The position numbers and the translations under genes are program-made. This document shows, one piece after another, positions 596-17,299 of a DNA stretch of 64,000 nt. How positions within the stretch are numbered: the first letter of the stretch is position 1; the number at the start of each line of letters is the position of its first letter. The notes below the pieces were generated by a model that ran no database searches, was not told the DNA's origin, and saw only the letters and a list, made by a program, of their open reading frames with translations. This DNA comes from Acidobacteriota bacterium (GTDB lineage: Bacteria > Acidobacteriota > UBA6911), in the NCBI GenBank assembly GCA_963664705.1, contig OY761556.1:3072001-3136000 (forward strand), given 5' to 3'.

Positions 596-2509
596 TCATG
601 CCTTTGGCCCCAAAAAGCGAGTGTTATCAGGCGATCGTTTTGTAATACCAACCCTGTCCAGATAATCCAGAAGCGGCAGCGCATATTTGCGGGTTGCATC
701 GATGAGATACTTAAACTGCACGCTTTCCATCCGCTTCTCTTTTTTAATGTGCTCTGTCACCAGTTCCCTTGCTTTTTCCACGGCTTCCGTGTGGAAGTAC
801 ATATCTCCGGCTACTCGTATAAGGCGCCCATGCTCCGTAAGGAGACGCAGAGCCTCGGCTGCCTCTTTGGTGCCCAGCCCGCAAACTTGCATAACTTCTG
901 CCCTATCGGGCGGGCTGAATATGCGTTGCAGGAATAGAGACTCCACATCCTGCAGACGTTTCTCTTCTGCAATGTCAAATCGAACGCTGTGCGATGCAAG
1001 AAGCACGCGATCTCCTGTTTTACGAATTTTGCCTCGGGATTCGAGTTCACTCAGCAGCCTTCGAATAACAGGTTTGGGCAGCTTGGATGTGGTTTGGCAG
1101 CTCTCGATTTCCAGCCCGGGGCTGGCCGGATCCTCCCGATGATATTTGGATATCTCTTCCAGCAGTTCCTGCGATAGTCTCTCGAAAGTGTCTGCGTGGA
1201 TAGTAAGGCTTTGCTCGAGGATCATTATCTTTGCGGAGTCGGCAAGCGACTGAACTATTCCCTCTGCGCAGCGTACTGTCTTCTTAATTCTTTGGGCGAT
1301 AGCCTTGATGGTTAATGCCTGGTCTGGGACCGTGCGGATAGCATATTCAGCGAACTCCGCATCGTCTCGCACGGCTTTAGCTCGACAATGCACATCTTCG
1401 AGTACGACGGGCCTGTTTCGTTTCAGCTTTCGTTCCAGCGCTTCGATGATCACTCCACCGCCGATAGTCTGAACGGGCGATAAGCTTCGCAAGATGAAGC
1501 GGTCCATCGGACCGGCCACGATAGGTTGGCTAAGTTGCACCTGCACAAGCGCGCGCTCCCCGCCACGAGAAACATCCCCTTCGAGCGTGTATACGGTTGC
1601 GGTATTCTCCGAAGTGCCGGTATGGAATTTCACCGAAGATCCGTTCTTGAGATACAGCCCATCGAGAGCCAGCATATTCAATTCGCACAAAAATAGATTG
1701 GCCGGAGTGAACCATCCTTCCACTGTAATGACATCCCCCCGGGAAATCGTATCCTGGTCCCATTGCGGCACATTAATCGCGGCACATTGTCCGCATTGCA
1801 CCCGATCCGACTGGGTCGCATAAACCTGAATTGCTTTTATCCTTCCGGTCGAAGCCTGAGGATAAATGATCACCTGTTCTCCCAAGCCGGCGGAACCACT
1901 GACAGGTATGCCGGATACGATCGTTCCATACCCTTTTACCGAGAAGGTGCGCTCGACGGGCAAACGGAATATGCCGTCTGTCTGTTTTGGCTTCAGGTTC
2001 TGAACCAAGTTCGCAAGTCCTTCATAAAACGGCTCGAATCCTTCTCCAGTAATGTTTGAAAAGGGAAAGATCGATGCGTTTTGTAGGAATGTCCCATGAA
2101 GGTAAGTGCGGATTTCCTGAGTAACGGTTTCGACACGCTCCGGAAGGACCTTGTCCACCTTGGTCAAAACGACAACGCCGTGCTGCACACCCAGCAGCGA
2201 CAGGATGTCCAGGTGCTCCCGTGTCTGCGGCATCACGCCATCATCGGCTGCAATAACAAAGATCACGGCATCGATCCCTGTAGCCCCAGCCACCATAGTC
2301 TTGACAAAGTTCTCATGCCCGGGAACATCTACAATCCCCACCTCGAGATCGGCGATTTTCCAGGGAGCAAAACCCAGCTCTATCGACATCCCCCTTTCTT
2401 TTTCTTCTTTCAACCGGTCGGTTTCGCACCCAGTCAGGTTCCCGACCAGGGCTGTTTTGCCATGATCGATATGGCCCGCGGTTCCAAGCGTAATGTTCTT
2501 TTGATTCAT
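596..2509 (-). CDS. selB: Selenocysteine-specific elongation factor SelB
   Basis: [21 protein letters not shown] GTPase motifs; C-terminal winged-helix TRKYALPLLDYLD. Confidence 0.97.
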   Translation of the reverse strand: MNQKNITLGTAGHIDHGKTALVGNLTGCETDRLKEEKERGMSIELGFAPWKIADLEVGIVDVPGHENFVKTMVAGATGIDAVIFVIAADDGVMPQTREHLDILSLLGVQHGVVVLTKVDKVLPERVETVTQEIRTYLHGTFLQNASIFPFSNITGEGFEPFYEGLANLVQNLKPKQTDGIFRLPVERTFSVKGYGTIVSGIPVSGSAGLGEQVIIYPQASTGRIKAIQVYATQSDRVQCGQCAAINVPQWDQDTISRGDVITVEGWFTPANLFLCELNMLALDGLYLKNGSSVKFHTGTSENTATVYTLEGDVSRGGERALVQVQLSQPIVAGPMDRFILRSLSPVQTIGGGVIIEALERKLKRNRPVVLEDVHCRAKAVRDDAEFAEYAIRTVPDQALTIKAIAQRIKKTVRCAEGIVQSLADSAKIMILEQSLTIHADTFERLSQELLEEISKYHREDPASPGLEIESCQTTSKLPKPVIRRLLSELESRGKIRKTGDRVLLASHSVRFDIAEEKRLQDVESLFLQRIFSPPDRAEVMQVCGLGTKEAAEALRLLTEHGRLIRVAGDMYFHTEAVEKARELVTEHIKKEKRMESVQFKYLIDATRKYALPLLDYLDRVGITKRSPDNTRFLGPKA

Positions 2510-2533: not shown

Positions 2534-3937
2534 TTATAAAATCTGACGTAAGGCTTCGATCACGATGGAATCTTCTCCCGGCAGGAGCGTCCTTGGATCA
2601 AATAACACTTGCTCGTTTTGAATCCTCGCAATGATGGGTATTCGGTGCTGGCGCAGCCTGAGAACCAGCGTCTGCGCGGATATTACTTTTGGAGTGATCA
2701 CCAGCAGTGTTGTTTGAAGGTTCTGGTCGGGCAGAGATCCACTGCCTGTCTGCGAAAATCCCTGAACTGTTTTGATTTCTGCCTGCGGTTGGGCCTCTCC
2801 AAGTTTGGCCGCCAATGTTTCAGCAGCAACCTGAAGATCTTCCGGTTTCCGAAGAATCATCTCGAGTGTGGGAAGTTTACGTTCAGCATTTTTTGAGTCG
2901 AGGAAAAGCCTGAGAGTCGCTTCCAGAGCTGCAAGAGTCAATTTGCCTACCCGCAGAATACGCGCAAACTGGTTTTTCCGGATCGCCGCTATTAAATCCG
3001 ATCTCCCAAGGATGATCCCTCCCTGCGAAGCGCCGATCAGCTTGTCAGCACTGCTGGTTATGAGGTCCGAGCCTGCCGCGATGGATTGTGGCAACGTCGG
3101 TTCCGGTTCAAAGCCATACCTCGACATATCTACCAGGGATCCCGCACCCACATCATCGATCAGAACGAGTTTATGTTTGTGGGCGATCTGTACCATCTCA
3201 TCGAGAGGCACCTCTGAGGTGAACCCGTGGATTTTGTAATTGCTGGGATGCACTCGAAGAAGCGCAGCCGTGTTTTCCGTAATTGCCCTCTCATAGTCCC
3301 TGGCATGCGTTTTGTTCGTGGTCCCGACTTCCACCATCCGGGCGCCGCTGAAGGCCATTACGTCCGGAAGCCTGAACTCTCCACCAATTTCGACGAGCTG
3401 GCCCCTGGACACAATCACCTCCTTACCCTTCGCGATTGTGTTGAGTACAATGGAGGTTGCGGCCGCGTTGTTGTTGACAACGGTAGCGGCCTGCGCGCCG
3501 GTAAGGCGGCAAAGAAGGGTCTCAACGCCTTCATCCCTGGATGATCTTTGGCCTGAACCTAAACCGATCTGGAGCCTGGAGTATCCGGCAAGTTCCTCCC
3601 TTATCTCCTCAAGAGCTTCCTTTGCGAGTACGGCCCGGCCCAGTGCCGTGTGCAAAATTATGCCTGTGGCGTTGATCACCTTTTGATAAAACGGCCGCTT
3701 CATTGAATTCAGGGCGCCGAGAGTCTGGCTGAGGATCTCCTTGGAAATATCGCTTTTGCTCTTGTCCTTATAAGCGCCCTTTTGGATTTTGGCTCGGACC
3801 TTTTCTTTGACCTCGCGCACGGTCAGGGTAATGATTTCGGGGTTGAACCCGATGCCTGCCGATTGCAGTTCCGCTGATTTGAGTATGACGTCAACAGAAG
3901 GAAGATTTCGCAGGGCTTGATTCTCCTGGTTTTTCAT
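2534..3937 (-). CDS. selA: L-seryl-tRNA(Sec) selenium transferase
   Basis: LRNLPSVD, VINATGIILHTALGRA, SRGQLVEIGGEFRLPDVM, SADKLIG PLP-lysine motif. Confidence 0.97.
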   Translation of the reverse strand: MKNQENQALRNLPSVDVILKSAELQSAGIGFNPEIITLTVREVKEKVRAKIQKGAYKDKSKSDISKEILSQTLGALNSMKRPFYQKVINATGIILHTALGRAVLAKEALEEIREELAGYSRLQIGLGSGQRSSRDEGVETLLCRLTGAQAATVVNNNAAATSIVLNTIAKGKEVIVSRGQLVEIGGEFRLPDVMAFSGARMVEVGTTNKTHARDYERAITENTAALLRVHPSNYKIHGFTSEVPLDEMVQIAHKHKLVLIDDVGAGSLVDMSRYGFEPEPTLPQSIAAGSDLITSSADKLIGASQGGIILGRSDLIAAIRKNQFARILRVGKLTLAALEATLRLFLDSKNAERKLPTLEMILRKPEDLQVAAETLAAKLGEAQPQAEIKTVQGFSQTGSGSLPDQNLQTTLLVITPKVISAQTLVLRLRQHRIPIIARIQNEQVLFDPRTLLPGEDSIVIEALRQIL

Positions 3938-4139
3938 AGGTCCCCATTCCGGAGTTAAACATCGCTCGAACCTGCGCTATGTCGCGCAACTTCTTACAAT
4001 CAGTAGTATGAGAATTGAAATCAGATAATGGGTAGACGGCGGACCGACGTTAGCGTTGGGACACTCAGGTATATCCGGAGAAGGTATGGATAGATTGTGC
4101 AGACCCGATCACAAGCAGACTCCAATTAATGGTTATCGC

Positions 4140-4169
4140 ATTATCAATCCGACCTTGCCAAACCGTCAA
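4140..4169 (-). promoter_or_regulatory. Putative sigma70 promoter for selA-selB
   Basis: TTGACG-18 nt-GATAAT on the minus strand. Confidence 0.35.
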
Positions 4170-4224
4170 TAGTTTTTTCAAGGGAGCAATTTTGAAATTT
4201 GGTGCCTTTTGAGGTAAGCGGGGA

Positions 4225-4413
4225 ATGGCGGCAAAGCGAAAGGAATTGCAAAAAGGACCGAAACAAATTATCGTGACGATTCGTTGATTGGACAAGAAAG
4301 TGAGTTTGCCTTGAAAACGGCAGTTTGGAAAACCTGGGAAGGCGGTTGAGTCGCGGCACACGATGCTCGTGGCGAGTTCGCTGGATGCCGGCCCGGGAGT
4401 GGCAATGCCGTAA
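4225..4413 (+). CDS. Putative 62-aa leader peptide with two in-frame UGA codons upstream of selD
   Basis: GAGGT SD at 4211-4215, ATG 4225, UGA at 4285 and 4312, TAA 4411: MAAKRKELQKGPKQIIVTIR-U-LDKKVSLP-U-KRQFGKPG...; only weak hairpins follow each UGA. Confidence 0.3.
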
Positions 4414-4532
4414 CTGCTTTTTGATTTCATTCCGTTCCATCTCTTAGGCTGCATCACATCCCATTCACAACCACAAAGATCAGCGCGGATTGGTTCCGCC
4501 TCAATTTGTTTCCTTGCCTAATGAGATCTACT

Positions 4533-6143
4533 ATGACGATCAATATTGAGCGACGAAGACGTGCAATGCAGCGTTCTGTTCGCCTGGGGCACTGTGTGTG
4601 CGACCCCGCAAAGCCCTGCCCCTGCGACCTGTTCAAGGAAAAAGACATTTGCCTCTGTGCCGGCGAGCGGTTGGAGGCTCCGGTCGGACCTGTCGCACTG
4701 ACGCAGTTGGTGGAGAAAGCCGGGTGCGCGTCTAAAATCGATCAAGCGTTTCTTAAGGCTACGCTTAATAATTTGCCCACCTTCGATGATCCGCATGTTT
4801 TGGTGGGAATGCCCGCGGGCGATGACGCCGGCGTGTACGAAATTGGAAATGGGATGGCGTTGGTGCAAACCGTGGATGTATTCACGCCTTCTGTAGACGA
4901 CCCATACCTATTTGGTCAGGTGGCAGCGGCTAATTCCCTCAGCGATGTTTATGCTATGGGTGGACGGCCGATCACCGCATTGTCAATTGTCGGATTTCCC
5001 GTGCGCAAGGTCCCGGACAGCGCCCTTCATGAAATAATGCGCGGCGGCATAGATAAAATGAAAGAAGCTGGGGTCCCGGTCATCGGCGGCCACAGTATCG
5101 ATGACGATCAGATAAAGGCAGGCTTTGCCGTAACCGGACTCATCCAAACCGATCAGGTAGCCACGAATGCTAATGCCCAGGTCGGTGACTTGCTAATTCT
5201 GACAAAGCCGCTGGGGACAGGAATTGTGGCCTTCGCCCGGCAAATCGGACGTGCCGAGGAAGAATCGGTAGCCGCTGCCGTGCAATCAATGACAACGCTC
5301 AATAAGGCAGCGGCAGAGCAAATGGCGGCGCACAATGTTCATTCTTGCACAGATGTCACCGGTTTCGGGCTTATGGGGCACTTGTCGGAAATGGCCTTGA
5401 GGAGCGGAGTTGATATTGAACTGCTCTGGGATAGTCTCCCCTGGTTCCCTGGTGTTTTGCAATATGTTGCCGATGGCATTCTTCCGGGAGCCATCGAGCG
5501 AAACAAAGAGTCGTGCGGAGACCGCGTATTTTCCGGCAGCGGGATCAGTGAACTTATGCTGGATATGTGCTTCGATGCTCAAACTTCGGGAGGGTTGCTC
5601 ATGGTGGTCGACCCGAAAAACTCGGAAACGCTTTTAAGCGCGCTACACCTCGCAGGCATCCCGGATGCATGTGTCATCGGCAACGTCCGGCAAAAAGGCG
5701 AAGGCCGCGTCTTTCTTGAAACCAATGGGAGAAGGAGATTACCTATGTCGAAAGATCAATCCAAACCCACTCCAACGCCGCAGGAATCCGCGTGCTGTAC
5801 GGAACAGGCCCAACAAGCTTCCTGCTGCAGCCCTGAAATCCAGACTGCCGGCTGTTGCTCCGGTGAGGCAGAATCAGCCGCCGAGTCGGGCGCGGAAGCA
5901 CTCTATGGGCAGTTTCTTTCCGCGGTAGGAAAGCCCGGAAGTCTGGATGCATTCACCAAACAGGCGATCAACATTGCGTTGGCGGTGGGGACCCGATGTG
6001 AACCCTGCCTAAAAGCCCACATTCAGAAGGCAAAACAAAACGGTTTCACACCGGCCGAGATAGATGAGGCCGCGTGGATGGGGGTGGGATTCGGAGGGTC
6101 GCCTGCTCTGATGATGTATACACGATTAAAAAATAGCAAATAG
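4533..6143 (+). CDS. selD: Selenide, water dikinase SelD (Cys form) with an N-terminal CxC-CPC-CxC domain and a C-terminal CMD/AhpD-like domain
   Basis: LTQ...GCASK, DDAGVY, QTVDVFTP, AANSLSDVYAMGG, TDVTGFGL, DAQTSGGLL; extensions CVC..CPC..CLC and RCEPC..H. Start could be 4521 or 4533. Confidence 0.95.
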   Translation: MTINIERRRRAMQRSVRLGHCVCDPAKPCPCDLFKEKDICLCAGERLEAPVGPVALTQLVEKAGCASKIDQAFLKATLNNLPTFDDPHVLVGMPAGDDAGVYEIGNGMALVQTVDVFTPSVDDPYLFGQVAAANSLSDVYAMGGRPITALSIVGFPVRKVPDSALHEIMRGGIDKMKEAGVPVIGGHSIDDDQIKAGFAVTGLIQTDQVATNANAQVGDLLILTKPLGTGIVAFARQIGRAEEESVAAAVQSMTTLNKAAAEQMAAHNVHSCTDVTGFGLMGHLSEMALRSGVDIELLWDSLPWFPGVLQYVADGILPGAIERNKESCGDRVFSGSGISELMLDMCFDAQTSGGLLMVVDPKNSETLLSALHLAGIPDACVIGNVRQKGEGRVFLETNGRRRLPMSKDQSKPTPTPQESACCTEQAQQASCCSPEIQTAGCCSGEAESAAESGAEALYGQFLSAVGKPGSLDAFTKQAINIALAVGTRCEPCLKAHIQKAKQNGFTPAEIDEAAWMGVGFGGSPALMMYTRLKNSK

Positions 6144-6177
6144 ATCGAGCAGGCAAACAAGTTGACCTAATTCACGC

Positions 6178-6207
6178 TTGACCTTGTATTGCAGGATGCC
6201 GTAAATT
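6178..6207 (+). promoter_or_regulatory. Putative sigma70 promoter of selC
   Basis: TTGACC-18 nt-TAAATT ending 7 nt before the tRNA 5' end. Confidence 0.5.
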
Positions 6208-6214
6208 CATCAGC

Positions 6215-6309
6215 GGAGGTGACGGGGGCCCGGTGGCTCCCGCGGTCTTCAAAACCGTTGAGCCGCCTTTAAAGCGGCAGGTGGGTTCAACTCCCATTCG
6301 CCTCCGCCA
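6215..6309 (+). tRNA. selC: tRNA-Sec (anticodon UCA)
   Basis: 95 nt; 8-bp acceptor stem GGAGGTGA/TCGCCTCC, anticodon loop CT-TCA-AA, long variable arm, G discriminator, encoded CCA. Confidence 0.97.
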
Positions 6310-6341
6310 CTACCCTTTGCTTCACTCCTTATCTCCGCCAA

Positions 6342-7091
6342 TTATCTTGTTGCCCGCAAATATACTCCCTCGGTGTACCTGGATGTGGTGTATCCGGTTT
6401 TGCCGAGAATCTTAGCCGAACGAAATCCGGCTTCGCCTAGTTTCGCCAGGTAGTCCCCACCCGGCAACGCTCCGGCGATTCAGGTCGACCAGGCATCCAT
6501 GCTCGCCAATGTCTCTTCTGGAATGCTTTCTACCACCACAAGATCGGCGGCCACAAAATTTCCGTCCGGACGTAACACCCGAGCGATCTCCCTAAAGGCT
6601 TTATCCTTATCAGGGACCAGGTTTAGAACACCGTTTGAAATCACGAAATCGAATGACGCATTTTCAAAAGGCAATTCTTCAGCCGATCCCTCTTGGAAAC
6701 GAAGGTTTTGCATAGCGGTTTCCGCCCGGGCTTTGCAGGCCCAATCGAGCATTTCGGCCGTAAAATCAATGCCGAAAACCAGTCCCTCCGGCCCCGCCAG
6801 GAGCGCTGAGACAAAAGAGTCAAGACCACAGCCACAGCCGATATCAAGGACTCGCTCTCCTTTACGCACGGAACGGATGCTGAATGGATTCCCCACTCCG
6901 ACGAATCTATCCACGACATCCTTCGGAATAGTACGGATCAACTCACGAGGGTATCCAAGCCGTTCCAAGCTCTCTTGTCCGACAGGATAGGGGAACAGAC
7001 CTTCCGCCTTATGCGAAACACCTCGGTATTTGCTCTTTATGGCAGACTGCAGTCGTTCTTTCCAATTGTCAGCGAAACAATTATCCGTCAC
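6342..7091 (-). CDS. ArsM-like SAM-dependent methyltransferase, selenoprotein (Sec at UGA 6480-6482)
   Basis: DIGCGCG SAM motif; reading through the UGA gives DAWST-U-IAGALPGGDYLAKLGEAGF...ATR*, matching the ArsM W-x-x-C-x-A-G-A motif; SECIS hairpin follows. Confidence 0.88.
6443..6467 (-). promoter_or_regulatory. SECIS-like hairpin (methyltransferase)
   Basis: UUGCCGGGUG-GGGAC-UACCUGGCGA, 10-bp stem starting 12 nt after the UGA. Confidence 0.75.
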
Positions 7092-7195: not shown

Positions 7196-7210
7196 ATGCA
7201 GATTTCGCAT
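7196..7210. promoter_or_regulatory. Possible LysR recognition box (ATG-N9-CAT; T-N11-A)
   Basis: ATGcagatttcgCAT dyad at the lysR start, facing the divergent methyltransferase. Confidence 0.35.
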
Positions 7211-8131
7211 AGAATAATTTCCCAACTGAATTTTCAACACTTGCGCACATTCCAGATATTGGCACGCCTTGAGAACTTCTCCAGAACAGGCGATCAAGTC
7301 GGACTATCGCAATCAGCCGTTTCAAGGCACATCAGTGCGTTGGAAGAGGCATTGGGGCTACGGCTATTTGAACGTATCGGACGGCGCGCAATATTGACCT
7401 CGGCCGGAAGAATTTTGCGAGAACGAATTGAGACGCTTATGCGAGAAGCCGATGCTCTGCCGAACATTCTTAAAGATTTGGCAGAAGGGATACAGGGCGA
7501 TCTCAGGATTGGCGCCTGCATTACCGCCGCAAATGCCATTCTTCCGCAAGCTCTCGGGTTGTACAGGCATCAGTACCCACACATCGGGCTTTCACTTCAA
7601 CCGGGCAATAGTTCTGATATTATCGAATGCCTTCGACGGGGTGAGATCGATCTTGCATTTGTTGCCTCGGACAGGTTGCCTTCCGATGTTAAAACTCTGG
7701 CGGAAATTGCGGATGATCTGATTTTATTCGCCTCGCCGGATCACCCAATCTCGATCAAGCGTAACATTGAAGCGAATGATCTCGCTGATTGCGACTTTAT
7801 CCAGCGAGAGGCTCCATCAGACACACACTCGATGGTCACGCGTTGGCTAGAAGCGAAAGGAATTCAGTTGCGAAATCTGATGGATGTGTGGTGACCGGAC
7901 ACTATCAGGCGCCTGGTAGGCGCTGGGTTGGGAATATCTGCACTGTCCCGCCGATTAATTGCGGACGAACTCCTGAAGAGAACTCTTAAGGAGTTGCGAG
8001 TCAAAGGATGGCCGCTGTCCAGGAAAATTCGAATTGCTGTTATGAAGGAGTATTTTTTGTCCAGGGCAACGAAGCAGTTCCTTCAGTTGCTGCGACACAA
8101 GGTCCCGGAGGGACGGTTCTTTGATGCCTAA
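7196..8131 (+). CDS. LysR-family regulator with in-frame UGA (Sec233), 311 aa
   Basis: LysR HTH (LSQSAVSRHISALEEALGLRLFER); the same frame continues after UGA 7892-7894 as PDTIRRLVGAGLGISALS... to TAA, restoring normal LysR length. Confidence 0.85.
7906..7925 (+). promoter_or_regulatory. SECIS-like hairpin (LysR)
   Basis: CA(G)GCGCCU-GGU-AGGCGCUG, starting 11 nt after the UGA, with GU in the apical loop. Confidence 0.75.
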
Positions 8132-8252: not shown

Positions 8253-9350
8253 TTACTTCTTCTTTTCCGCCCCTCTCTTTCCGCCCAGGTTGAACTGAAC
8301 ACCCAATTGCAGGCTGGTTTTTGCAAAATCTGCAGCTCTTTGGGTATTGGTGAAATCCAACCCGACATATTGATGAAGGCGAACAGGAACAGTGAGGTAG
8401 TAGGTCGCGAACCCCGCATCCCAAGCTATTCCCGGGGAAAGCGAAACCATGTACCCTGGCTGACGGTATCCAGATGTGGCGGTTAAAACGTTATAAACCG
8501 GAACACCAGCAACCTGGCTGCCGACAGACAACGAAAAGCGCTTGAAATGTGGAACAGCCGTGGATATGCCGCCGCTAAACTGGTAGGAATCCGGAGCGGT
8601 CAGATAGCGTACATTTTCCGCAACTGCCTGCGGACCGGCCGGGTTTACGGCCGCACCGAACGCGATGGTGTCGTTTTGCTTTTTGAGACTGAATAGGTAA
8701 AGCCCGCTTCCATAGACGCTGAATCGCCCTATCGAGCGGAACCCTTGAGCAGACAGCCTCAAGCCTAAAGCACCACTGCCAGGCTGAACAGCAGGATACA
8801 CGGGACGATTGATAATATTTGCCCCTTTGGAGTCGGGATAGGGGACCTGATAATTGGACTCCCCGGTTGGCAACCGAAGTCCCAAACCAACACTGATGTT
8901 CTGTTTGGTATTTTTTTCAGGATTCAGCAACCACATCCGGCCGCCAATGACGGCATCGCCGAAACCGTGCACGTGCTGATAATAGCGAGTGCCTGCGACT
9001 ACATTGCTCCAATAAGACCAGAGAACATAGGGAACTTCGGCGGTAAGGTTGATCCTGCGGGAGAGGCCATAGGCTCCCTGTAGATTCAGTGTGTCGCCTC
9101 CCTCCCACACCGAATTTGTCGATATGACGTCGTACCCACGAAACGTCTCATCGGTCGCAAATCGACCCCAATAGCTATTCAACTGAAACTGGCCCTTTTG
9201 CAGGTACGGGCCCATCATGCCGCCACGCATGGGCGACATACTCTTGGACAAAATTCAACCACAGCCCTGCGAGAATGCAGACTGAGGTATGAGTAGAGCG
9301 AGGCCGATTACCATCGGTAACAGCCAGCTCAAGTAATCACACTTCCTCAT
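8253..9350 (-). CDS. Exported outer-membrane beta-barrel transporter-family selenoprotein, paralog 1 (signal peptide + QGCG-U)
   Basis: AAAGGA RBS, ATG 9350, signal peptide ending SAFS, then QGCG-UGA(9255-57)-ILSKSMSP in frame with the 332-aa ORF; GFGD..LRLPTG..QPGSG motifs resemble the Phenol_MetA_deg-type barrel family. Confidence 0.85.
9217..9239 (-). promoter_or_regulatory. SECIS-like hairpin (barrel paralog 1)
   Basis: AUGUCGCC-CAUGCGU-GGCGGCAU starting 15 nt after the UGA. Confidence 0.7.
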
Positions 9351-9494
9351 CGAAACATTCCTTTCTAGCATAGTTTTCTCTATTGCACACAAGCAACGTG
9401 CCACATTGTGGTCGAATGAGTCCTTCGCATGCAAATATATTTGAATATTATAATAATGAGAAATACGGATAAGATCTCAGGTAAGGCGGACTGG

Positions 9495-10934
9495 TTATTT
9501 GGAGGGCGCAGCTTCCATATTGGCAATCGCGAACAACTCGCTTCGACTCATGATGTATAAAGCTCCATTCGCAGCAACCGGTGTGCTGTACACAGAACTA
9601 CCCATTAAATTCTTCGCGAGAGTCTTTTGCTTTTTGCCGGCCAGAAAAACAGCAACATCGCCATCTTCATCCGCGAGATATATCTTCCCGTCTGAAAGCA
9701 GCGGAGATCCCCAAATTGCAGACTGCAGATCGTAATTCCAATAGGATTTCCCGGTTTCACTGTCGAGACAATGCAGAACGCCGCTGAAATCGGAGATATA
9801 CACCAACCCATCGGCAATGGCCGCGGTCGAAATAGAGCGGCGGACTTTGTCGCTGTGCCAGACCCGTCCACTTTCGGTGATATCGCCGCTTTGGGATGGA
9901 TCAATACTGTACATATGACCGGGGCCTTCTCCATGTTCCGGATCCTGACCGCTGGGAACGAAGACCCTGTTATTAAAGAAGACCGGAGTAGCAATTCCGT
10001 AATTTTTTGTTTTGGGCCAGACTGCGTTTTTGGGGTTCAAATCAAAGGACCAGAGCCTCTCTCCGGTACGCGCATTGAAGCCGTAGAGCCATCCATCACC
10101 GCCGGGAAAGAAAACCTGCATCGTTCCATTGACTTCACCTAGAGCCGGCGAAGCCCATTGTCCGTGAAGGATATGATCGCCAGGTGAATTATCCTGCCAG
10201 ACAACTTTGCCGGAGTTTTTATTGACAGCAATGAAGCTTGGGGCTTTAGGCGCAAAGACCTTCTCGTGATTTTCCGATACACCGTTTGAGGTCTCCACGA
10301 AAATCAAGTCGCCCCAAATAACCGGCGAGGAGCTGGCCATGTTGTGCGCATAGGTCCCCAACTCCTGCATCATATCGAGCTTCCAGATTACATCCGCATC
10401 CAGTTTGCTTTTATAGGCTTCATTCTGAACCGGACCGTCATTTTTCCCATCTTGAAATCCCTCAGTATCCAGGCAGACGAGTTCGCCGCGATTTGTAACA
10501 TAATAGAGACGCTTTCCTTCCACTGCGGGAGAAGAACACACTCCCTGTTCCGGCCAATCGTTGGCCGGACCTGAATCCAGCTTGTCCGTTACCGCCTGCC
10601 AGAGAAATTGACCGTCAGATTCGCGGAAGCACATCAGGATTCCCTTGTCGTCTTTAATTTCCGGATTTCGCGCATGCGCATTGTTGGTTCCAACAAACAC
10701 TTTTCCGTCTGCAACAACGGGGTTACCGTAGGATGTATCCCCAAGTGCTGCTCTCCATTTTATGTTGCTGCCAGTCTTGAGATCCCAGGTCGAGGGCAGC
10801 CCGACAATGGAACTAATCATATTTCGCTGAACCGATCCTCCCCACATGGGCCAGTCCTGAGATACAAGCGGCAGAATGGAAGCCGCCAGCAATAGGGTTG
10901 CAGCACAAACAATTATAAAGTGCACGTGGCGCAT
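9495..10934 (-). CDS. Secreted PQQ-like (BamB-type) beta-propeller protein
   Basis: Signal peptide, DWPMWGG..RN, repeated SSP..G..L..D..TG..W units. Confidence 0.85.
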   Translation of the reverse strand: MRHVHFIIVCAATLLLAASILPLVSQDWPMWGGSVQRNMISSIVGLPSTWDLKTGSNIKWRAALGDTSYGNPVVADGKVFVGTNNAHARNPEIKDDKGILMCFRESDGQFLWQAVTDKLDSGPANDWPEQGVCSSPAVEGKRLYYVTNRGELVCLDTEGFQDGKNDGPVQNEAYKSKLDADVIWKLDMMQELGTYAHNMASSSPVIWGDLIFVETSNGVSENHEKVFAPKAPSFIAVNKNSGKVVWQDNSPGDHILHGQWASPALGEVNGTMQVFFPGGDGWLYGFNARTGERLWSFDLNPKNAVWPKTKNYGIATPVFFNNRVFVPSGQDPEHGEGPGHMYSIDPSQSGDITESGRVWHSDKVRRSISTAAIADGLVYISDFSGVLHCLDSETGKSYWNYDLQSAIWGSPLLSDGKIYLADEDGDVAVFLAGKKQKTLAKNLMGSSVYSTPVAANGALYIMSRSELFAIANMEAAPSK

Positions 10935-11032
10935 GGTCTTCTCGAATATCTTGCGATTATCTCATCGGATCTTGGATCCTTTAAGGTGGCGCTAGTCTGC
11001 CGCCTCAAGGGATCGCCGCACAAAGAACAGGT

Positions 11033-11572
11033 CTAAGGCTTTTCGGCGCCTGTTTTATCCGGGGAAGCATCCAATGCCTCCATGATCTTTGCTTCGAGTG
11101 CCTTCTCGTCCCCTCGGTTGTAACCATTCTGATAAAACAGAACCTCGTTCTTTCTGCCGAGCAGATAGTGGGTCGGTGTCATCGTGAGGCGATAATCATC
11201 CATAAGATCATCTTGGGATACACCCAGCAATACGGGCACGGTTATGTGATATTTCTCCGTCCAGCCTGCAATCAGTTTGCTTTCATCCGGCTTGACGTTG
11301 ATTATGACGTAGGACAACCCTTGTTCCTTATATTTGTCGTATATCTTCAGGACTTCTGGTATCGCAAGATTGCAATAAGCGCAACTTGGATAATAAAAGG
11401 CTACCAGGGTTAATTTGTTTGCAAAATCCGGCAAGGTTTTCGTGATGCCTTCGGGAGTTTTCAGCTTGAACGGTTTAAACTTTTCTGCTGCAGGCCCGAG
11501 GGTCGTTAATAGAATAAGGCAACAGACAGTCAGGATGGTAATTTGAATGCTTTTCCTATCGCTTCTTGTCAT
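11033..11572 (-). CDS. Exported TlpA/redoxin-family thiol-disulfide protein
   Basis: AAGGA RBS before ATG 11572, signal peptide, FYYPSCAYC CxxC, cis-Pro loop MTPT. Confidence 0.85.
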   Translation of the reverse strand: MTRSDRKSIQITILTVCCLILLTTLGPAAEKFKPFKLKTPEGITKTLPDFANKLTLVAFYYPSCAYCNLAIPEVLKIYDKYKEQGLSYVIINVKPDESKLIAGWTEKYHITVPVLLGVSQDDLMDDYRLTMTPTHYLLGRKNEVLFYQNGYNRGDEKALEAKIMEALDASPDKTGAEKP

Positions 11573-11683
11573 TTTGTATTCCTTGCAAATGCACTCATTG
11601 ATCACATTCAGGCAAACAAAAATGTCCGCATAATTCAGCGGGCAGCCACAGATGGCCACCCGCCGAAATAAACAGAATATCAA

Positions 11684-12787
11684 CTATTTTGCTGGTTTCT
11701 TTCCGCCGAGGCTGAAAGTCACGCCGAATTGCAGACTCATTTTATTCAGATTCCCGCTTTGCTGGGTGCCGGTAAAGTCCTTCAATATACCACCCCACAC
11801 ACGGACGGGAACTGTTAGAAAATAGGATCCAAGCTTTGTTCTCAGCGACAGGCCTGGGTTCAATGTTACAAGATATCCTGGCTGCCGATATCCCTCGGAA
11901 CCAGTCAGGACATTAAACGTCGGCACTCCCGCAATCTGGCTGCCCAAAGAGACGGAGAGCCCCTTCAAATGCGGGACAGGCGCGGACATGCCGGCATTAT
12001 ATAGATAGGAATCGGGCGTGGCGTTATAGCGCTTATTCGCCGCTACGGCGTCAGGCCCACCCGGGTTAAATGTGGACATGATTGACTGGGTATTGTTCTG
12101 CTCCTTGAAACTGAACAGATATAGAGCATTTGCATACACAGCGAAATGGCTGAACCTTCGGTATCCCTGCATTGCCACTCGGAGCCCGGCCGCACCGCTG
12201 CCAGGTTGTACGTCCGATTTTGCAGCATGGAGCTTGATATCCTGTCCCAGAATATTGGGGAACATAACCTGATAGTCCGAGTTTCCAGTAGGTAATCTGA
12301 AGGCCAACTGGAAGGCCATGTTCTGTTTTGTATTCTTTTCAGGATTGAAGAGCCATACGCGCCCGCCAATTATGGCATCACCCAGGCCTTTGGTTTTCAT
12401 TTCACGCCGTGAGCCTGCAATGGGATAGTTCCAGTAGGAATCGAGTAAGACCGGAACATCTGCGGTGATGTTGATTCTGCGGGTAAGGGCATACGCGCCC
12501 TGGAAGTTTAAGGATGTGCCACCCTGTTTTGGAGCCGCGTCCGCATTAATGAGGTCGCTCCGCAACTGGGTTCCGGTGAAGTATTGGTCGCTGTTAAACC
12601 GATTCAAACTGCCTTGAATCTGCCATTCTCCCTTTTCCAGATAGGGTCCAAGTAGGCCGCCGCTCATGGGGGCCACATTTCTTGCTAAAATTCAACCACA
12701 ACCTTGTGAAAACGCGCTCTGTGGCGCAAGCAGAGCCAGGCAAAGTGCCCACGGCACCAGCCAGCCCAGCAATTTCATCTTTGTCAT
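11684..12787 (-). CDS. Exported outer-membrane beta-barrel transporter-family selenoprotein, paralog 2 (signal peptide + QGCG-U)
   Basis: AAAGGA RBS, ATG 12787, MTKMKLLGWLVPWALCLALLAPQSAFSQGCG-UGA(12692-94)-ILARNVAP; UGA is codon 32, as in paralog 1. Confidence 0.85.
12652..12676 (-). promoter_or_regulatory. SECIS-like hairpin (barrel paralog 2)
   Basis: GUGGCC-CC-CAUGAGC-GG(C)GGCC(U)AC starting 15 nt after the UGA; weaker stem. Confidence 0.5.
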
Positions 12788-13153
12788 TTCTATTCCTTTC
12801 CATACACAGTTGTTTCAGCATTCAGAAAACCAGTTCATTTGACCAAAGCTTCCTCGCATTATGCAACAAGAAAGTTCTGCCAAATTGAGTAAGGCCAATT
12901 TCGCATACCTCCATAGGTCCGCGGCACTTTTATTGTCCGAAGGCAAATCCTAACTCAGATCTATTTTGCTCCGAAAAGCCTTGCTTCTATTCCCCTATCG
13001 GTGACACACTTATTCTGACATGAATAAAGTATTTACATCCCGCTTCTCCGGCTTCACTTGATAATCCTTTCCATACACGTCGGTACGCCGTCATCCTGAT
13101 TTCTCATTTTCGATAATCCAAATTGTGAGCTCATTGCAGCTGCGGAGCTTTGC

Positions 13154-13669
13154 GTGCAAGACACTGCGAAAGATAAGCCTCTTCTTATTCATCGACTCAA
13201 AACCTTTGATCGGAGCCTCGAAGAATTGCGGCACAAAGCCGGATCTGGTGAAATTGCGGCCAGCAAAGCGGAACAGCTGATTCGGCAGCTTTCGGGATCC
13301 AACGATATCAACTTGCGCAGGCAATTCAGATTTACCCGGAGTGGTGAAAACAGGATTACTTATTGTAGAAAATATGATTTGGGTTGCGGGTATCGGCTTG
13401 TATTCATCAGGAAAGGAGAGCAAATCGCCTTTCTATATGTTGGGACACATGACGACTGCTTTCGTTGGATTAGCCGAAATAGGGGATTTACCTACGAATT
13501 CGTTGATTCAATGAATAATCCCGAGCCTCCACGGCCAGAAGCTGAAACCAATCATTTCTCCGATGAACATCAATATCTTGAAACAGACGAATATGAAGAC
13601 CAGCTGATGCGCAAAATAGATGACAAAATTTTGCGGGTTGTCTTTGCCGGCCTGACAACACAGTCTTAG
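13154..13669 (+). CDS. Hypothetical protein with a RelE/YafQ-like segment and an acidic tail
   Basis: KYDLGCGYRLVF...LYVGTHDDC resembles RelE-fold YRL/VGTH motifs; start uncertain. Confidence 0.5.
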   Translation: MQDTAKDKPLLIHRLKTFDRSLEELRHKAGSGEIAASKAEQLIRQLSGSNDINLRRQFRFTRSGENRITYCRKYDLGCGYRLVFIRKGEQIAFLYVGTHDDCFRWISRNRGFTYEFVDSMNNPEPPRPEAETNHFSDEHQYLETDEYEDQLMRKIDDKILRVVFAGLTTQS

Positions 13670-13845: not shown

Positions 13846-16197
13846 TTAAGCTTTACCAAGCGCTTTAAGCACCTTATCCGGCGTGGCAGGCGGGTCTACC
13901 CATTTATCAATTGCATTGTAAATGGCACAGATGATCATATGTGTGTTTGACATGGAATGGCTGATGCCGTTGGCCCCGTAGGTTCCATTGCCGGCGCGCG
14001 TTTCAACCAGACTCGTCTGTAGCTTCGGCACATCCAGCATGCCCGGTTTTTTGTACTCGATCATGTTGGTATTGAGTTTTACGCCGGTCTGCTTATCGTA
14101 GAAGTAGTCTTCAAACATCTGGCATCCCTGGCTGAAGAACGCAACCTGGTCGAGTTGCCCCTCAAGCGAAATGCGCCTGATTACTTTGCCCGAGTCCACC
14201 GCGGCTCCGTACCTCAGGATTTCCACCTCACCCGTTTCTGTATCGACAGCCACTTCGCAGTACAGAGTATTCAGTGTGTCATACTTGCTGGGCCATAGCG
14301 GTGCGGGAGGATGCCCGGCAAATGTCGCAAATACGTTTGACGAGAGACTCTTGATTGGTACCCCGGCAGTCTTGTCTGACTTGAGTACTATTTTGCCATT
14401 TACTATATCCAGGTCTTCCGGCTTCTTGCCCTTCAACGGGTTTGGAGCCGTCTTTCGCGGCGGTCCGAATCCTCCAGCCGCCGGTTTGTCCGCTTCAGCA
14501 ATCGCCGCTTCAAAAATGCGCTGTCTGAATATCTGGCAGCATTCTTTCATGACCCAACCCGTAGCTACAAGTCCGTCTGCCCCTCCGCTAATAGACACGA
14601 ACATTGCATTGGGATCATAATCAATGCTGATATCCGCAGCTTCCAGGCCGAGCTCTTCTGCGGCAATCATGGCAACGCCTTCAACAGAAAATACCCCAGC
14701 ATGGGGACCCTGGATCGGCATGTGCACAACTCCGTTCCGAAGCTCGAGCACTGCGTGAAAATCACTGCCCATTGCATGCCTTGGGCACATCTGGTATCTG
14801 AAACCGGCCCCGTGCATCCTGCCGTCAGGCAGTTTCTTTGCGCCGTTTTTATGCCAGGTCCAGTTCATCATTTTCTTTCCGGCTTCGATGCAGGCGTCAA
14901 AGCTGGGAACCGATCTTGTGTCCTTCTGTCCGTCAGGCCCATGGAGGTTCAGCCTGGCAATATCGATTGGGTCTTTCCCAAGTTTCTCGGCAATTATATG
15001 AATTGCCATAGTAACGGAGTCCCAATTGAAGGGACAAAATTGCGAACTGAATGGCATCAGACCGCGATTGCTGTCCACGATATCCATTCTCTGCCGGATG
15101 TTAAGGCATTTTGTTCCTATGTACGGTCCGTAACCCTGATCGCCAATAGTCCCGAAAAATGAATTGCCTGTAGTGCCGCCGTCGGCAATAGAGAAATCAT
15201 CGAAAGCGGTAATCAGTCCGTCCTTTGTAAATCCCACCTTCATGTGAATAAAACGCTGCTGAATCATGAAATCAAAGGTGTCCTTGCGTGTGTTTATGCA
15301 ACGCACGGGCCTTCCGGTCCTCTTTGCCAGAAGCGGCGTAATCTGCTGGGATCGTCGTATCGTCCAGTCGCAGTACTTGCCACCCTGAAAGAGCCCTTCC
15401 TGTACCGTCTTTTCCGGCGGCAGACCGTACAATTGTCCGATCGCGTTTTTGCCGCCGCTGGCGTGCCAGACAGCGCCTTCTATATGGAGATTATCTCTTC
15501 CAAGGTAAGGATCATCGAACCACCACGCTACGGAACTGTGCGGATTGGGAGAAGCGGAAGCATACGTAGGCATGTTTAGGTCGTATTCGATAATGTAATC
15601 GGCTTCCTTGAAACCTTGCTCTACATCTCCCTGGTTTTGATTTGAATAGGAAACATTCCCTTTTTTCGGAGGATTGTTATTCCCTCCCCCACCGAAAGGA
15701 TTGCTGGGACCGCCTCTATCCTCGGGCCGAATCACCGGAGCGCTGGCTTCTCTTCCCGCTTTGATATCCACGACATGCGGAAGGATTTCCCATTCCACAT
15801 TAAGTGCCTTTAAAGCCTCATCGCAGATATCTCCATTTTCCGCTACCACAATGAATCCCACTTCTATGTTTTCTTCTTCTGCAACATCGGAAATAAAAGG
15901 CTGGGGCGCACCGCCCATGCCGCCACGCTGCAGCTTTTTTAAGTCTTCATCCTTCCATGTGACGATATCCACAACTCCGGGAACAGCCTTGGCTTTTTCG
16001 AGATTGAAACTTTTTATCCTTGCGTGCGCATGAGGACTGCGCAGAAATTTGGCTTCGAGCATATTGGGAACGACATAATCGATTCCGAATTTAGCGAGAC
16101 CCGAGGCAACTGCCCATGACAGTTTGCCGGGCAGGTTTGCCCTGCCGACTACCCTGAAATCCTCTCTTTGTCCGTTAGTTCCTGTTAAATCAGCCAT
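13846..16197 (-). CDS. Xanthine dehydrogenase family molybdopterin-binding subunit
   Basis: LRSPHAHARI, LAKRTGRPVR, IAEKLGKDP, EVAVDTETGEV, EGQ, YK.P, PATPDKVL. Confidence 0.9.
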   Translation of the reverse strand: MADLTGTNGQREDFRVVGRANLPGKLSWAVASGLAKFGIDYVVPNMLEAKFLRSPHAHARIKSFNLEKAKAVPGVVDIVTWKDEDLKKLQRGGMGGAPQPFISDVAEEENIEVGFIVVAENGDICDEALKALNVEWEILPHVVDIKAGREASAPVIRPEDRGGPSNPFGGGGNNNPPKKGNVSYSNQNQGDVEQGFKEADYIIEYDLNMPTYASASPNPHSSVAWWFDDPYLGRDNLHIEGAVWHASGGKNAIGQLYGLPPEKTVQEGLFQGGKYCDWTIRRSQQITPLLAKRTGRPVRCINTRKDTFDFMIQQRFIHMKVGFTKDGLITAFDDFSIADGGTTGNSFFGTIGDQGYGPYIGTKCLNIRQRMDIVDSNRGLMPFSSQFCPFNWDSVTMAIHIIAEKLGKDPIDIARLNLHGPDGQKDTRSVPSFDACIEAGKKMMNWTWHKNGAKKLPDGRMHGAGFRYQMCPRHAMGSDFHAVLELRNGVVHMPIQGPHAGVFSVEGVAMIAAEELGLEAADISIDYDPNAMFVSISGGADGLVATGWVMKECCQIFRQRIFEAAIAEADKPAAGGFGPPRKTAPNPLKGKKPEDLDIVNGKIVLKSDKTAGVPIKSLSSNVFATFAGHPPAPLWPSKYDTLNTLYCEVAVDTETGEVEILRYGAAVDSGKVIRRISLEGQLDQVAFFSQGCQMFEDYFYDKQTGVKLNTNMIEYKKPGMLDVPKLQTSLVETRAGNGTYGANGISHSMSNTHMIICAIYNAIDKWVDPPATPDKVLKALGKA

Positions 16198-16255
16198 TGT
16201 ATACCCCCATGATTAATTGCAGCGCTGCGTAGGTTGCGATAATGTAATTAGATTG

Positions 16256-17299
16256 CTAAGCTAATTTTTCCAGAATCGGCTGTAATCTTGATGGCTCCAG
16301 TCCGATTGAAAAGGCGTTGATACCTTCCATAATTTTGAAAGATCCTGATTCAGACTTCGCGTCCATAATCAGTACATTCCCTCCAAAGCGTGGTTTCATA
16401 ATTCCCACACGGTGTTGAACCTGCCCAATGGTTTCAGAGTCAGTGAGGTTCTTTTCCATTAAAGACTCTATTGTGAGATCCGGCCCATTGATTGTCCGCT
16501 TATGCATATCCGCGTATACCGGCGTTTTGTTCACATCCGGAACAACGGACAGAAAGATCACTCTGGAATCAAGCACAGAAGATGTATCGCCGTTGCGATT
16601 CCGCAGCAGTCTTTGGGTTGCAATCTCAACCGGAACATAGTAAGAATCCACTTCTCTGGCCAAAGGCATCTTAAAAGCTATATATCTGCCCAGTTTTTTC
16701 GAATGGAGAACAAATTCCGGGATGCGCTTTGCAGGGTGATGGAACTGACGTCCGAAAGCAATTTCTCCGATTTCGACAACAAGAGGCTTATTGTCGGCAT
16801 CGAGAGCGACCCCAAGAATTCCATCAGGTTCGAGCTCAACGGTAAGGGCAAGCGCAACCCAGGCTTCATACCCTCTCCGAAACATTGCTGTTGTATCTAC
16901 GATAAGATCGTTTCCCACAACCCATTCAAAATCACCCTCAGGTATTTTCCCCTGAACCAGTTCAAATAGCCGGTTGTATATGAGGCGCATCATCCCTTGT
17001 TGGGGATTGTGAAGAAAGCTGGACAGATCGAGCGGCAACTGAATTTTGCAATTTAGTGTATTGGACAACCTGGTTTCAGACTCAATGTAATTTTGCGAGA
17101 GAGCGAAAATGTCCAATGCAAATGAACGGCTCCATGATTCGACGATTGCCGCTCGGACGTTGTCAAAATGCGCATAGAATCTGTCACGCCGATCTTTAGG
17201 AATGTGCACTTCATGTGGAGAAATATGGATTTCCGGGTTTGACGAAATGAATTCACTCAGAATCCCATACTCGCGTTTCCACTTTGGATCAAGAGTCAT
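16256..17299 (-). CDS. Hypothetical protein within the molybdoenzyme operon
   Basis: 347-aa ORF co-oriented between the FAD and Mo subunits; no motif recognised. Confidence 0.7.
   Translation of the reverse strand: MTLDPKWKREYGILSEFISSNPEIHISPHEVHIPKDRRDRFYAHFDNVRAAIVESWSRSFALDIFALSQNYIESETRLSNTLNCKIQLPLDLSSFLHNPQQGMMRLIYNRLFELVQGKIPEGDFEWVVGNDLIVDTTAMFRRGYEAWVALALTVELEPDGILGVALDADNKPLVVEIGEIAFGRQFHHPAKRIPEFVLHSKKLGRYIAFKMPLAREVDSYYVPVEIATQRLLRNRNGDTSSVLDSRVIFLSVVPDVNKTPVYADMHKRTINGPDLTIESLMEKNLTDSETIGQVQHRVGIMKPRFGGNVLIMDAKSESGSFKIMEGINAFSIGLEPSRLQPILEKLA

Follow-up and report, generated by a model that had tools for sequence, protein, structure and literature searches.

Channels of the COG4313/PF13557 group (Pput2725, SphA and TcpY) and the barrel FapF (PDB 5O65/5O67/5O68; NF058560) are the described outer-membrane proteins closest to those reported here. 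COG4313 channels are thought to import hydrophobic molecules, and we know of no selenocysteine (Sec) or cysteine tip in FapF. YeeE/YedE, a helical inner-membrane protein, works by a Cys-relay mechanism. This thiosulfate transporter (PF04143) is listed as a selenoprotein with the motif GUxSG (PMC13188914 Table 1). Catalogued outer-membrane selenoproteins include the GSU2204 MtrB/PioB-family barrel (NF041027) and the FCYXU TonB-dependent receptor (NF049945) (PMC13188914). The N-terminus of Pput2725 fills the barrel lumen (PMC4493636), and in Geobacter sulfurreducens the outer-membrane barrel porin ExtI has been linked to the handling of selenite and to a cluster of selenoprotein genes (PMC5877670).

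We analysed a window of 64,000 nucleotides from an Acidobacteriota bacterium (contig OY761556.1); the coordinates below refer to this whole stretch. Two genes in the window very likely encode Sec-bearing outer-membrane channels of a widespread family.

Two paralogous barrel genes carry an in-frame UGA behind a signal segment

The barrel genes and the genes lying between them are as follows.

8253..9350, (-) strand: barrel 1 gene, 365 aa with Sec32; predicted mature chain starts Q-G-C-G-U
9359..9364, (-) strand: barrel 1 ribosome-binding site (AAAGGA)
9270..9350, (-) strand: barrel 1 putative signal peptide, 27 aa, with inferred cleavage
9255..9257, (-) strand: barrel 1 Sec codon TGA, codon 32
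9216..9240, (-) strand: barrel 1 SECIS-like hairpin, -13.0 kcal/mol, 5/5 pairs in the family register
9495..10934, (-) strand: exported PQQ_2/BamB-like beta-propeller, which precedes CGU-clade barrels in related islands
11033..11572, (-) strand: exported TlpA-type thioredoxin (C-A-Y-C), likely partner
11684..12787, (-) strand: barrel 2 gene, 367 aa with Sec32
12794..12799, (-) strand: barrel 2 ribosome-binding site (AAAGGA)
12692..12694, (-) strand: barrel 2 Sec codon TGA, codon 32
12652..12676, (-) strand: barrel 2 SECIS-like hairpin, bulged, -10.6 kcal/mol, 3/5 pairs in the family register

The two paralogues are 51.5% identical, and each has a single in-frame TGA, located between ...PQSAFS-QGCG and IL. 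A first-pass annotation had reported a ribosome-binding site, a signal peptide and a TGA at codon 32 in both genes. All were recovered: AAAGGA lies 8 nt upstream of the ATG in barrel 1 and 6 nt upstream in barrel 2, the hydrophobic cores of the signal segments reach best 11-residue Kyte-Doolittle means of 2.74 and 2.44, respectively, and both TGAs were located. Both TGAs are spanned by contigs of another sample (run X5), which show 0 differences, indicating that the TGAs are not assembly errors. Furthermore, TGA is a normal stop in the source genome, where it terminates 403 of 1317 long stop-free stretches.

Pairwise counts over 14 related CGU-type genes revealed 483 changes at third codon positions of the segment upstream of the UGA, versus 109 and 117 at the other two. 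This bias indicates that the signal segment is under protein-coding selection. Residue -1 is A or G in 123/123 pattern-matched relatives, which together with the S-A-F-S/Q pattern of the window genes suggests cleavage before Gln. A lipobox has the form [LVI][ASTVI][GAS]C and is cleaved before Cys; S-Q-G-C is not canonical in this respect, and an A-x-A-type site stands ahead of the Gln.

A Sec or Cys residue near the mature N-terminus is conserved throughout the family

We recovered 26 close metagenome loci, two of which lack the N-terminus; TGA is present in 24/24 of the others (14 QGCGU, 10 QGU). The view that the UGA is conserved and not a chance nonsense mutation is thus upheld. In a phylum sample of 42 genes, the site is TGA in 29 and TGC in 13. 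All 29 TGA genes occur in selA-positive genomes and 7/7 selA-negative genomes have TGC, with selA being the only sel gene screened in phylum genomes other than the source; the corresponding Fisher p of 6e-5 is overstated, since six of the seven selA-negative genomes belong to one family. A DNA pattern combining Q-G-TGA with the hairpin retrieved the barrel family and nothing else (123/123 matches; 121 pattern loci). A named-genome scan with a single barrel protein as query gave no match, and the wide barrel alignment contained no stretch conserved enough to scan with. Gene callers cut the family at the UGA, leaving database entries without the signal peptide or the active residue: 39 of 41 database homologues lack the N-terminus as called.

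U32 aligns with a Cys that is invariant across the 71 non-TGA rows, so that homologues do keep Cys or Sec at this site, as the first-pass annotation required of a genuine selenoprotein family. Moreover, Sec and Cys were exchanged at least six times within the family. Together, these observations point to a chemical requirement. As read from the alignment, the family-wide conserved feature is one Sec or Cys at predicted mature residue 3 (Q-G-U/C), one clade carries C-G-U as a derived insertion, and C-U occurs in one gene. The proposed CxU motif at the mature N-terminus therefore holds for both window genes, but the extra Cys is clade-specific and the family motif is Q-G-[U/C]. The search for C-G-C homologues returned 0 among 150 representatives and 0 among 13 candidates of an N-terminal search, which, with the clade-specific Cys, indicates that CxU is not required family-wide.

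The C-G-U clade has one origin, on a branch without the periplasmic-turn Cys and without the barrel arginines of the family. Sister lineages kept the turn Cys, and its swap for C-G-U was a single evolutionary event. A second Cys near the tip is found as C-G-U in 12/12 rows of the clade, as the turn Cys in 10/10 sister rows, as C-U, or as an N-terminal Cys in 34 of the 71 Cys-type rows; in 18 of 27 QG-U rows, neither the N-terminal segment nor the turn contains a second Cys.

A SECIS-like hairpin follows the UGA

At least four of the five hairpin pairs form in 34 of 42 distinct TGA contexts versus 0 of 7 TGC contexts. For 20 selected TGA contexts, pairing holds in 94% of cells, compared to 28-53% in slid controls, and three of six pairs covary, changing on both sides. 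TGA and TGC hairpins were not distinguished by a synonymous-codon control of stability (median 0.10 vs 0.11). The bSECIS model places the loop 16-37 nt after the UGA, with a loop of 3-9 nt and an MFE of at most -7.5 kcal/mol (PMC13188914), and both window hairpins fit this geometry (loop about 23-24 nt after the UGA; -13.0 and -10.6 kcal/mol). The bSECIS consensus also has a G in the first two loop positions, with some SECIS elements falling outside the model (PMC13188914). The wider family agrees with this consensus (C-G-U-G); in the window genes the G is third in the minimum-energy loop and comes second only in an alternative fold of barrel 1.

The barrels resemble COG4313 and FapF channels

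Owing to the truncation of most alignment rows, an initial structure model did not resolve residues 1-47. In the barrel structure model (mean pLDDT 91.6), 12 strands were counted from the DSSP string, and both proteins are predicted to be 12-stranded outer-membrane barrels of the COG4313/FapF fold. The model matched Pput2725 (PDB 4RL8) with a VIA Z of 24.6 and an rmsd of 2.6 over 257 aligned residues at 13% identity; its residues 10-328 overlay chain 1-268 of 4RL8, including the lumen-inserted N-terminus. From residues 2-3 onward, the model also overlays pore-filling linkers of autotransporters. Structure prediction thus supports the barrel fold, but left the tip at low confidence, with a mean pLDDT of 46-48 for residues 1-20 and values below 50 at residues 1-4 and 10-19. 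Accordingly, the earlier suggestion that the N-terminus acts as a plug or gate agrees with the lumen-filling N-terminus of the closest solved fold, whereas residues 1-20 that would form the plug are modelled with low confidence. The proposal that the two genes encode exported outer-membrane beta-barrel selenoproteins is supported.

Among solved structures, FapF was the best match in the sequence-profile search (E 7.5e-17), and it was also the top Foldseek match. The window proteins are nevertheless unmatched at the 700-bit cut-off of NF058560, for which the best relative scored 34.8 bits, and no fap genes were seen among the neighbours scanned. Likewise, the suggested HMM search with Phenol_MetA_deg yielded no PF13557 match for the window proteins at the gathering cut-off, which 2 of 15 relatives pass narrowly. 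When the natural Cys homologue P0047 was used as query, PF13557 was found in 10-15% of the members of its ESM Atlas clusters. The wider barrel family has many conserved strand charges, unlike what is thought of COG4313 channels as importers of hydrophobic molecules. It also has a P-T-G motif and an invariant Asp resembling those listed for the conserved patch in the Pput2725 paper (PMC4493636), a correspondence drawn from resemblance, not from an alignment. In contrast to the Cys/Sec tip of the barrel family, cysteine and disulfide have 0 mentions in that paper (PMC4493636).

GSU2204 (NF041027) and the FCYXU receptor (NF049945) also place Sec in an exported outer-membrane barrel, but differ from the window proteins in barrel class and motif and gave no NCBIfam match to them at E<0.01. 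More generally, neither window protein had a family match in NCBIfam 20.0 at that threshold, and none of the three deep-Sep 'hypothetical' families with NCBIfam ids (PMC13188914 Table 1) matched. The barrel family is absent from the 119 selenoprotein families of a 2026 list (PMC13188914 Table 1), which includes the families of Haft and Tolstoy 2025. A full-text literature search found no paper on this barrel family. Hence, for NCBIfam 20.0 and PMC13188914 Table 1, it is indeed not a described selenoprotein family.

The barrel genes lie in a selenium island with a second Sec system

The source genome has two full selA/selB/selC/selD sets, one of which lies in the same island as the barrels.

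596..2509, (-) strand: selB, island copy, 34% identical to the chromosomal copy
2534..3937, (-) strand: selA, island copy, 40% identical to the chromosomal copy
4566..6143, (+) strand: selD (Cys form) with a Cys-rich N-terminal extension and a C-terminal CMD/AhpD domain
6215..6309, (+) strand: tRNA-Sec, UCA anticodon, G73 discriminator
6339..7091, (-) strand: ArsM-type methyltransferase read through TGA 6482-6480, 250 aa; known selenoprotein type
7196..8131, (+) strand: LysR regulator with in-frame TGA at codon 233 (7892-7894) and a hairpin

The island tRNA scored 70.6 bits against Rfam tRNA-Sec RF01852, ends in G-CCA and adjoins selA and selD. The adjacent LysR is likely a second uncatalogued selenoprotein; with it as query, no relatives were found in the DNA of 400 phylum genomes (E<=1e-60) or of five close genomes. 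Promoter and terminator scans remained at chance level, and GC content (0.49-0.53) was no island marker. The second Sec system, the likely TlpA partner and the two additional UGA genes (ArsM-type methyltransferase and LysR) go beyond what had been annotated before.

Among loci with enough flanking sequence, a thioredoxin gene lies directly downstream of the barrel at 11 of 17 close loci and at 21 of 107 wider ones, and thioredoxin was the sole recurring downstream Pfam family seen. The thioredoxin CxxC and cis-Pro are invariant (22/22). Furthermore, a thioredoxin is fused to the barrel in four of the five longest representatives, two of them being of the same TlpA type as that of the window.

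Discussion

We put at even odds an overall reading in which these selenoprotein barrels have their pore plugged by the N-terminal segment and carry a Cys-Gly-Sec redox switch reset by TlpA. Its parts differ in strength. Sec is almost certainly inserted at the UGA by SelB, with the protein then exported and cleaved before Gln. Entry of the N-terminal segment of about 27 residues into the lumen from the periplasm is probable. The chain of selenol/thiol exchange on the plug, reset by TlpA and serving gating or a covalent relay, falls a little short of an even chance. In such a chain, the target of the selenolate would be a sulfur-loving solute, either As(III) or a compound of the S-S or Se-Se kind; the adduct would be resolved by the adjacent Cys as a selenenyl-sulfide, and TlpA would re-reduce the Cys-Gly-Sec tip, whereby the plug could gate the channel or carry the solute by covalent relay. 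YeeE/YedE would be a works-like analogue only, with Cys/Sec in the transporter path; homology is not claimed. The loss of lumen charges in the CGU clade points to an uncharged solute there, and the ArsM of the island, together with the DsrE/TusA genes that adjoin some barrel relatives, points to S, Se or As species. The 18 QG-U rows without a second Cys and the 86 of 107 wider loci without an adjacent thioredoxin indicate that the relay is not universal.

Only tentatively, and with chances well below even, do we extend this to a novel form of outer-membrane transport, in which S, Se or As species would be moved or gated by covalent selenol exchange on a plug, powered by thioredoxin instead of TonB, and encoded on a mobile selenium island with a second Sec system and a Sec-containing LysR sensor.

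Alternatively, the channel could be a selective one whose tip binds soft metals or metalloids (Hg, Cu, Ag, As(III)) at a site that does not cycle, with TlpA only keeping the tip reduced. Metal handling is favored by one long family member fused to two HMA domains and would suit the ArsM-type selenoprotein, the CobW and DtxR-type genes that adjoin some relatives, and a His conserved at 76% in the wider family. However, this His is lost in the CGU clade, no recurring metal-resistance neighbour was seen among 125 flanking ORFs, and thioredoxin fusions outnumber HMA fusions 4 to 1; we regard such a site as unlikely. Somewhat less likely still is a barrel acting as a scaffold for surface redox, where the Sec tip would relay electrons from TlpA and so reduce disulfides, peroxides or selenium compounds outside the cell, without any net import of solute. 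The TlpA linkage and fusion fit such an electron supply and the model tip overlays autotransporter linkers crossing the pore, but the tip position is of low confidence, the plug is short and without a cofactor motif, and the solved relatives are channels.

That the UGA mainly makes channel production selenium-dependent, with Sec chemistry being incidental, appears improbable: the barrel lacks a signal peptide unless the UGA is read through, and linkage to the sel genes and to the UGA-bearing LysR is in line with such control, yet Cys occupies the site in all 71 non-TGA rows with repeated Sec/Cys swaps, and the added Cys of C-G-U would be pointless. Cys identity of selC*-type tRNA-Cys is given by U73; recoding by such a tRNA was rejected, as the island tRNA has G73, matches RF01852 and lies beside selA and selD. 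Indeed, any reading of the UGA as other than Sec (pseudogenes, a reassigned code, Cys insertion or downstream re-initiation) is highly improbable, for despite ATG codons 7 and 10 codons past the UGA in barrel 1 and 10 in barrel 2, at or near which gene callers start, and a third UCA tRNA called by ARAGORN at another place in the genome (72 nt, discarded because its acceptor stem is broken), TGA works as a normal stop in this genome, the tRNA-Sec match stands, the signal segment is under coding selection, and a re-initiated barrel would be without an export signal.

The Sec-bearing barrels form a further selenoprotein family, common among Acidobacteriota and other bacteria of soils and sediments. 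A channel with a Sec tip, encoded next to sel genes, could be tested as a candidate for a class of redox-gated outer-membrane channels, and the C-G-U clade offers a natural experiment in which a vicinal Cys was gained while the turn Cys and the barrel arginines were lost on one branch. Finally, the island would illustrate the movement of an entire second Sec system from one genome to another.

Two TGA-containing barrel genes in the window

The first-pass annotation, made from the sequence alone, had proposed two paralogous C-G-U barrel genes, each with a ribosome-binding site, a signal segment and a UGA at codon 32. Both genes proved to be real:

9350 to 8253, minus strand: barrel 1, 365 aa with TGA read as Sec, single TGA at codon 32
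12787 to 11684, minus strand: barrel 2, 367 aa with TGA read as Sec, single TGA at codon 32
Between barrel 1 and barrel 2: exported beta-propeller and exported TlpA thioredoxin

The two barrels share 51.5% identity, and each contains S-A-F-S-Q-G-C-G-U-I-L around the TGA. Both genes have AAAGGA located 6-8 nt 5' of the ATG and encode a hydrophobic signal segment upon readthrough, and both TGAs were unchanged in second-sample contigs spanning them. As anticipated, the barrels would lack a signal peptide unless the UGA is read through, since table 11 gene calls list only signal-less bodies at both loci. In the genome of the window (G000), TGA is a normal stop that terminates 403 of 1317 long open stretches.

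Comparative evidence for selenocysteine

Among 41 database homologues, 39 begin downstream of the motif and both full-length ones carry Q-G-C. The N-terminus was included in 24 of 26 close metagenome loci, and all 24, which include some near-duplicates, have TGA (14 Q-G-C-G-U and 10 Q-G-U). Across the phylum, 43 of 401 genomes contained a barrel-family match. The motif codon was TGA in 29 and TGC in 13 of 42 phylum genes (matches with E<=7e-20 outside G000, five weak matches excluded). selA was present in the genomes of all 29 TGA genes, and all 7 selA-less genomes of this set have TGC; the p value of this association (6e-5) is overstated because six of these seven belong to one family. One of the 29 TGA genes comes from G049, a genome marked unpublished on which no claim rests. 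Furthermore, a DNA pattern combining Q-G-TGA with a hairpin occurred at no fewer than 121 loci (about 200 estimated). Those listed were mostly labelled Acidobacteriota, with some Planctomycetota, Armatimonadota and others, and all 123 listed matches were barrel-family members.

The SECIS-like hairpin begins about 18 nt 3' of the UGA. Of 42 distinct TGA contexts, 34 form at least four of its five fixed pairs, vs 0 of 7 TGC contexts; the other eight TGA contexts are of the barrel-2 type, whose hairpin is bulged. In 20 chosen TGA contexts, pairing was found in 94% of cells and three pairs vary on both sides; a shuffle test on these contexts was inflated by relatedness. A control with synonymous codons failed to distinguish the hairpins of the TGA and TGC groups. 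In barrels with the Q-G-C-G-U tip (CGU clade), the loop has G at the third place, outside the consensus as worded in section 5 of a 2026 review (PMC13188914). Taken together, the homologue, metagenome, phylum, hairpin and DNA-pattern evidence makes it highly probable that the barrel UGA encodes Sec.

Evolution of the N-terminal motif and barrel charges

The CxU motif of the first-pass annotation holds for both window genes and the CGU clade but not for the family, whose motif is Q-G-[U/C] at the predicted mature N-terminus. A Q[GS]C pattern matched in 66 of 150 representatives, most of the other 84 starting downstream, and the expected C-G-C homologues did not appear, as none of the 150 carries Q-G-C-G-C. 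In a 110-row tree (quick method, midpoint root), the 12 C-G-U rows form a single branch with support 100, nested within Q-G-U proteins, and at least six Sec/Cys changes are required. The C-G-U DNA reads CAG GGC TGT GGT TGA; a six-base duplication followed by a TGA to TGT change would fit as its origin.

Strand order puts the turn that follows W113 (numbered on the mature chain) on the periplasmic side; this turn has Cys in 10 of 10 rows of the sister lineages and in 0 of 12 CGU rows, a swap that counts as one evolutionary event. A CGU-like barrel of G406 (L189:6440-7536, minus strand), outside the 110-row tree, has Q-C-U with adjacent Cys and Sec replacing Q-G-C-G-U, and lacks the turn Cys. 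This pattern suggests that the CGU and sister lineage always retains a Cys able to partner Sec.

Fourteen charged sites, picked from the wider-family rows themselves, are conserved there: the median number kept was 14 in the 88 wider rows, 3 in sister rows and 2 in CGU rows. Of the 7 Arg sites, the CGU median was 0. Since sister rows are already low, the onset of charge loss predates the C-G insertion. As they lie within or next to strands, most of these sites probably face the lumen.

A channel fold with a possible plug

AlphaFold2, run on an alignment with N-termini, predicted 12 barrel strands with a mean pLDDT of 91.6, residues 1-4 and 10-19 being of low confidence. The nearest structures were Pput2725 (4RL8; Z 24.6, rmsd 2.6) and FapF (Z 21.6), and the barrel-family profile matches FapF (E 7.5e-17). 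PMC4493636 reports that the lumen of Pput2725 is plugged by the protein's first 14 residues, entering from the periplasm, and model residues from 10 overlay this segment. Those from 2-3 overlay autotransporter pore linkers. These overlays suggest that Sec may sit in the pore, as the proposed plug or gate would have it. The window barrels fall below the PF13557 (Phenol_MetA_deg) and FapF cut-offs; they are therefore predicted to work like COG4313 channels, yet are not filed as members.

Thioredoxin partners and proposed mechanism

Among loci with >=500 nt of flank, a thioredoxin gene lies 3' of the barrel in 11 of the 17 close ones and in 21 of the 107 wider ones (profile built from ten such neighbours). 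Thioredoxin was the sole recurring downstream Pfam family seen among 125 flanking ORFs, and CxxC and cis-Pro occur in 22 of 22 aligned neighbours. The five longest representatives comprise four barrel-thioredoxin fusions and one protein with two HMA domains (P0051, P0063, P0162, P0194 and P0065). Both termini of a 12-stranded barrel are on the periplasmic side, which would put a fused thioredoxin next to the entrance of the plug. A 527 aa open frame at locus L112 is probably another thioredoxin fusion. DsrE- and TusA-type sulfur carriers adjoin a few relatives, and a Thermoanaerobaculia bin has tandem QG-U barrel genes 1133 nt apart (L144/L145).

The most likely reading, which we hold tentatively, is a Sec-tipped plug with a redox cycle. 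The tip would react with a sulfur-loving solute or oxidant, Sec would pair with the neighbouring Cys as a selenenyl-sulfide, and TlpA would re-reduce it, the cycle gating the pore or relaying solute inward. A second Cys and a neighbouring thioredoxin gene are both absent from most Q-G-U members; the cycle may thus be confined to certain branches. A static metal or metalloid site seems unlikely, an outward redox conduit slightly more so, and a selenium-dependent expression switch is doubtful. That the UGA is not Sec is very improbable.

The selenium island and its second Sec system

The barrels belong to an island with further UGA-bearing genes; its other parts and its right flank are:

596-6309: selB, selA, selD and tRNA-Sec, left of the barrels, sel genes above NCBIfam cut-offs
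4566-6143, plus strand: SelD with Cys-rich N-terminal extension (no Pfam match) and C-terminal CMD/AhpD domain
6339-7091, minus strand: ArsM-type methyltransferase, 46 more codons past TGA 6482-6480
7196-8131, plus strand: LysR regulator, in-frame TGA 7892-7894 (codon 233), G-G-loop hairpin
13154-13669, plus strand: weak ParE-like ORF, right flank
13846-19091, minus strand: three-subunit molybdopterin oxidoreductase set, right flank
19617-20798, plus strand: Mutator-type transposase-like ORF, right flank, judged by eye

A second selA, selB, selD and tRNA-Sec lie elsewhere in G000, the proteins sharing 40, 34 and 44% identity with the island copies. Of 30 genus genomes, five carry island-type selA (window 596-6309; G401, G406, G411 and G418), always alongside a chromosomal copy, and CGU barrels were found in two of these five. 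A relatives search found full-length family barrels (E<1e-100) in only one other of 29 genus genomes, G406. In related loci, CGU barrels are again grouped with selA, selB, selD, propeller and TlpA in varying gene order, and the extended SelD is 74-83% conserved. These observations suggest that the island is patchily distributed and probably mobile; GC content does not set it apart.

The ArsM-type methyltransferase, whose TGA has a hairpin at -16 kcal/mol, belongs to an established selenoprotein type; gene callers would cut it short. The LysR best matches LysR_Sec_metab in NCBIfam, below cut-off. Its top 112 matches, one being the window's own call, were all called at 192-239 aa, most of them stopping at one shared motif (MDVW or MEVG). 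In full-length LysRs, N/H occupies the position of its TGA, with no Cys homologue among those aligned, and 'LysR' has 0 occurrences in PMC13188914. It likely represents an uncatalogued Sec-LysR family.

By motif scan, G000 also holds roughly twelve UGSC-like genes that combine a U-x-x-C motif with a hairpin, as well as Sec-type FdhA and SelD, indicating a selenoprotein-rich genome. A 72-nt ARAGORN UCA-anticodon call (G000:C1:1625651-1625722, minus strand) was rejected as probably a decayed tRNA with a broken acceptor stem.

A probable new selenoprotein family

No NCBIfam 20.0 model matches the window barrels, and the only two outer-membrane selenoproteins in Table 1 of PMC13188914 (119 families) are of other barrel classes, in line with the initial impression of an undescribed family. 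'Outer membrane' and 'porin' have 0 occurrences in the main text of deep-Sep, BSepDB and SelCysML, and no paper on the QG-U/C family was found in the open literature searched. The barrels very likely form an undescribed family of selenoproteins that uses an established channel fold, to which the window contributes the C-G-U clade, the Cys swap, the uncharged barrel, the thioredoxin fusions, a second Sec system and a UGA-bearing LysR.
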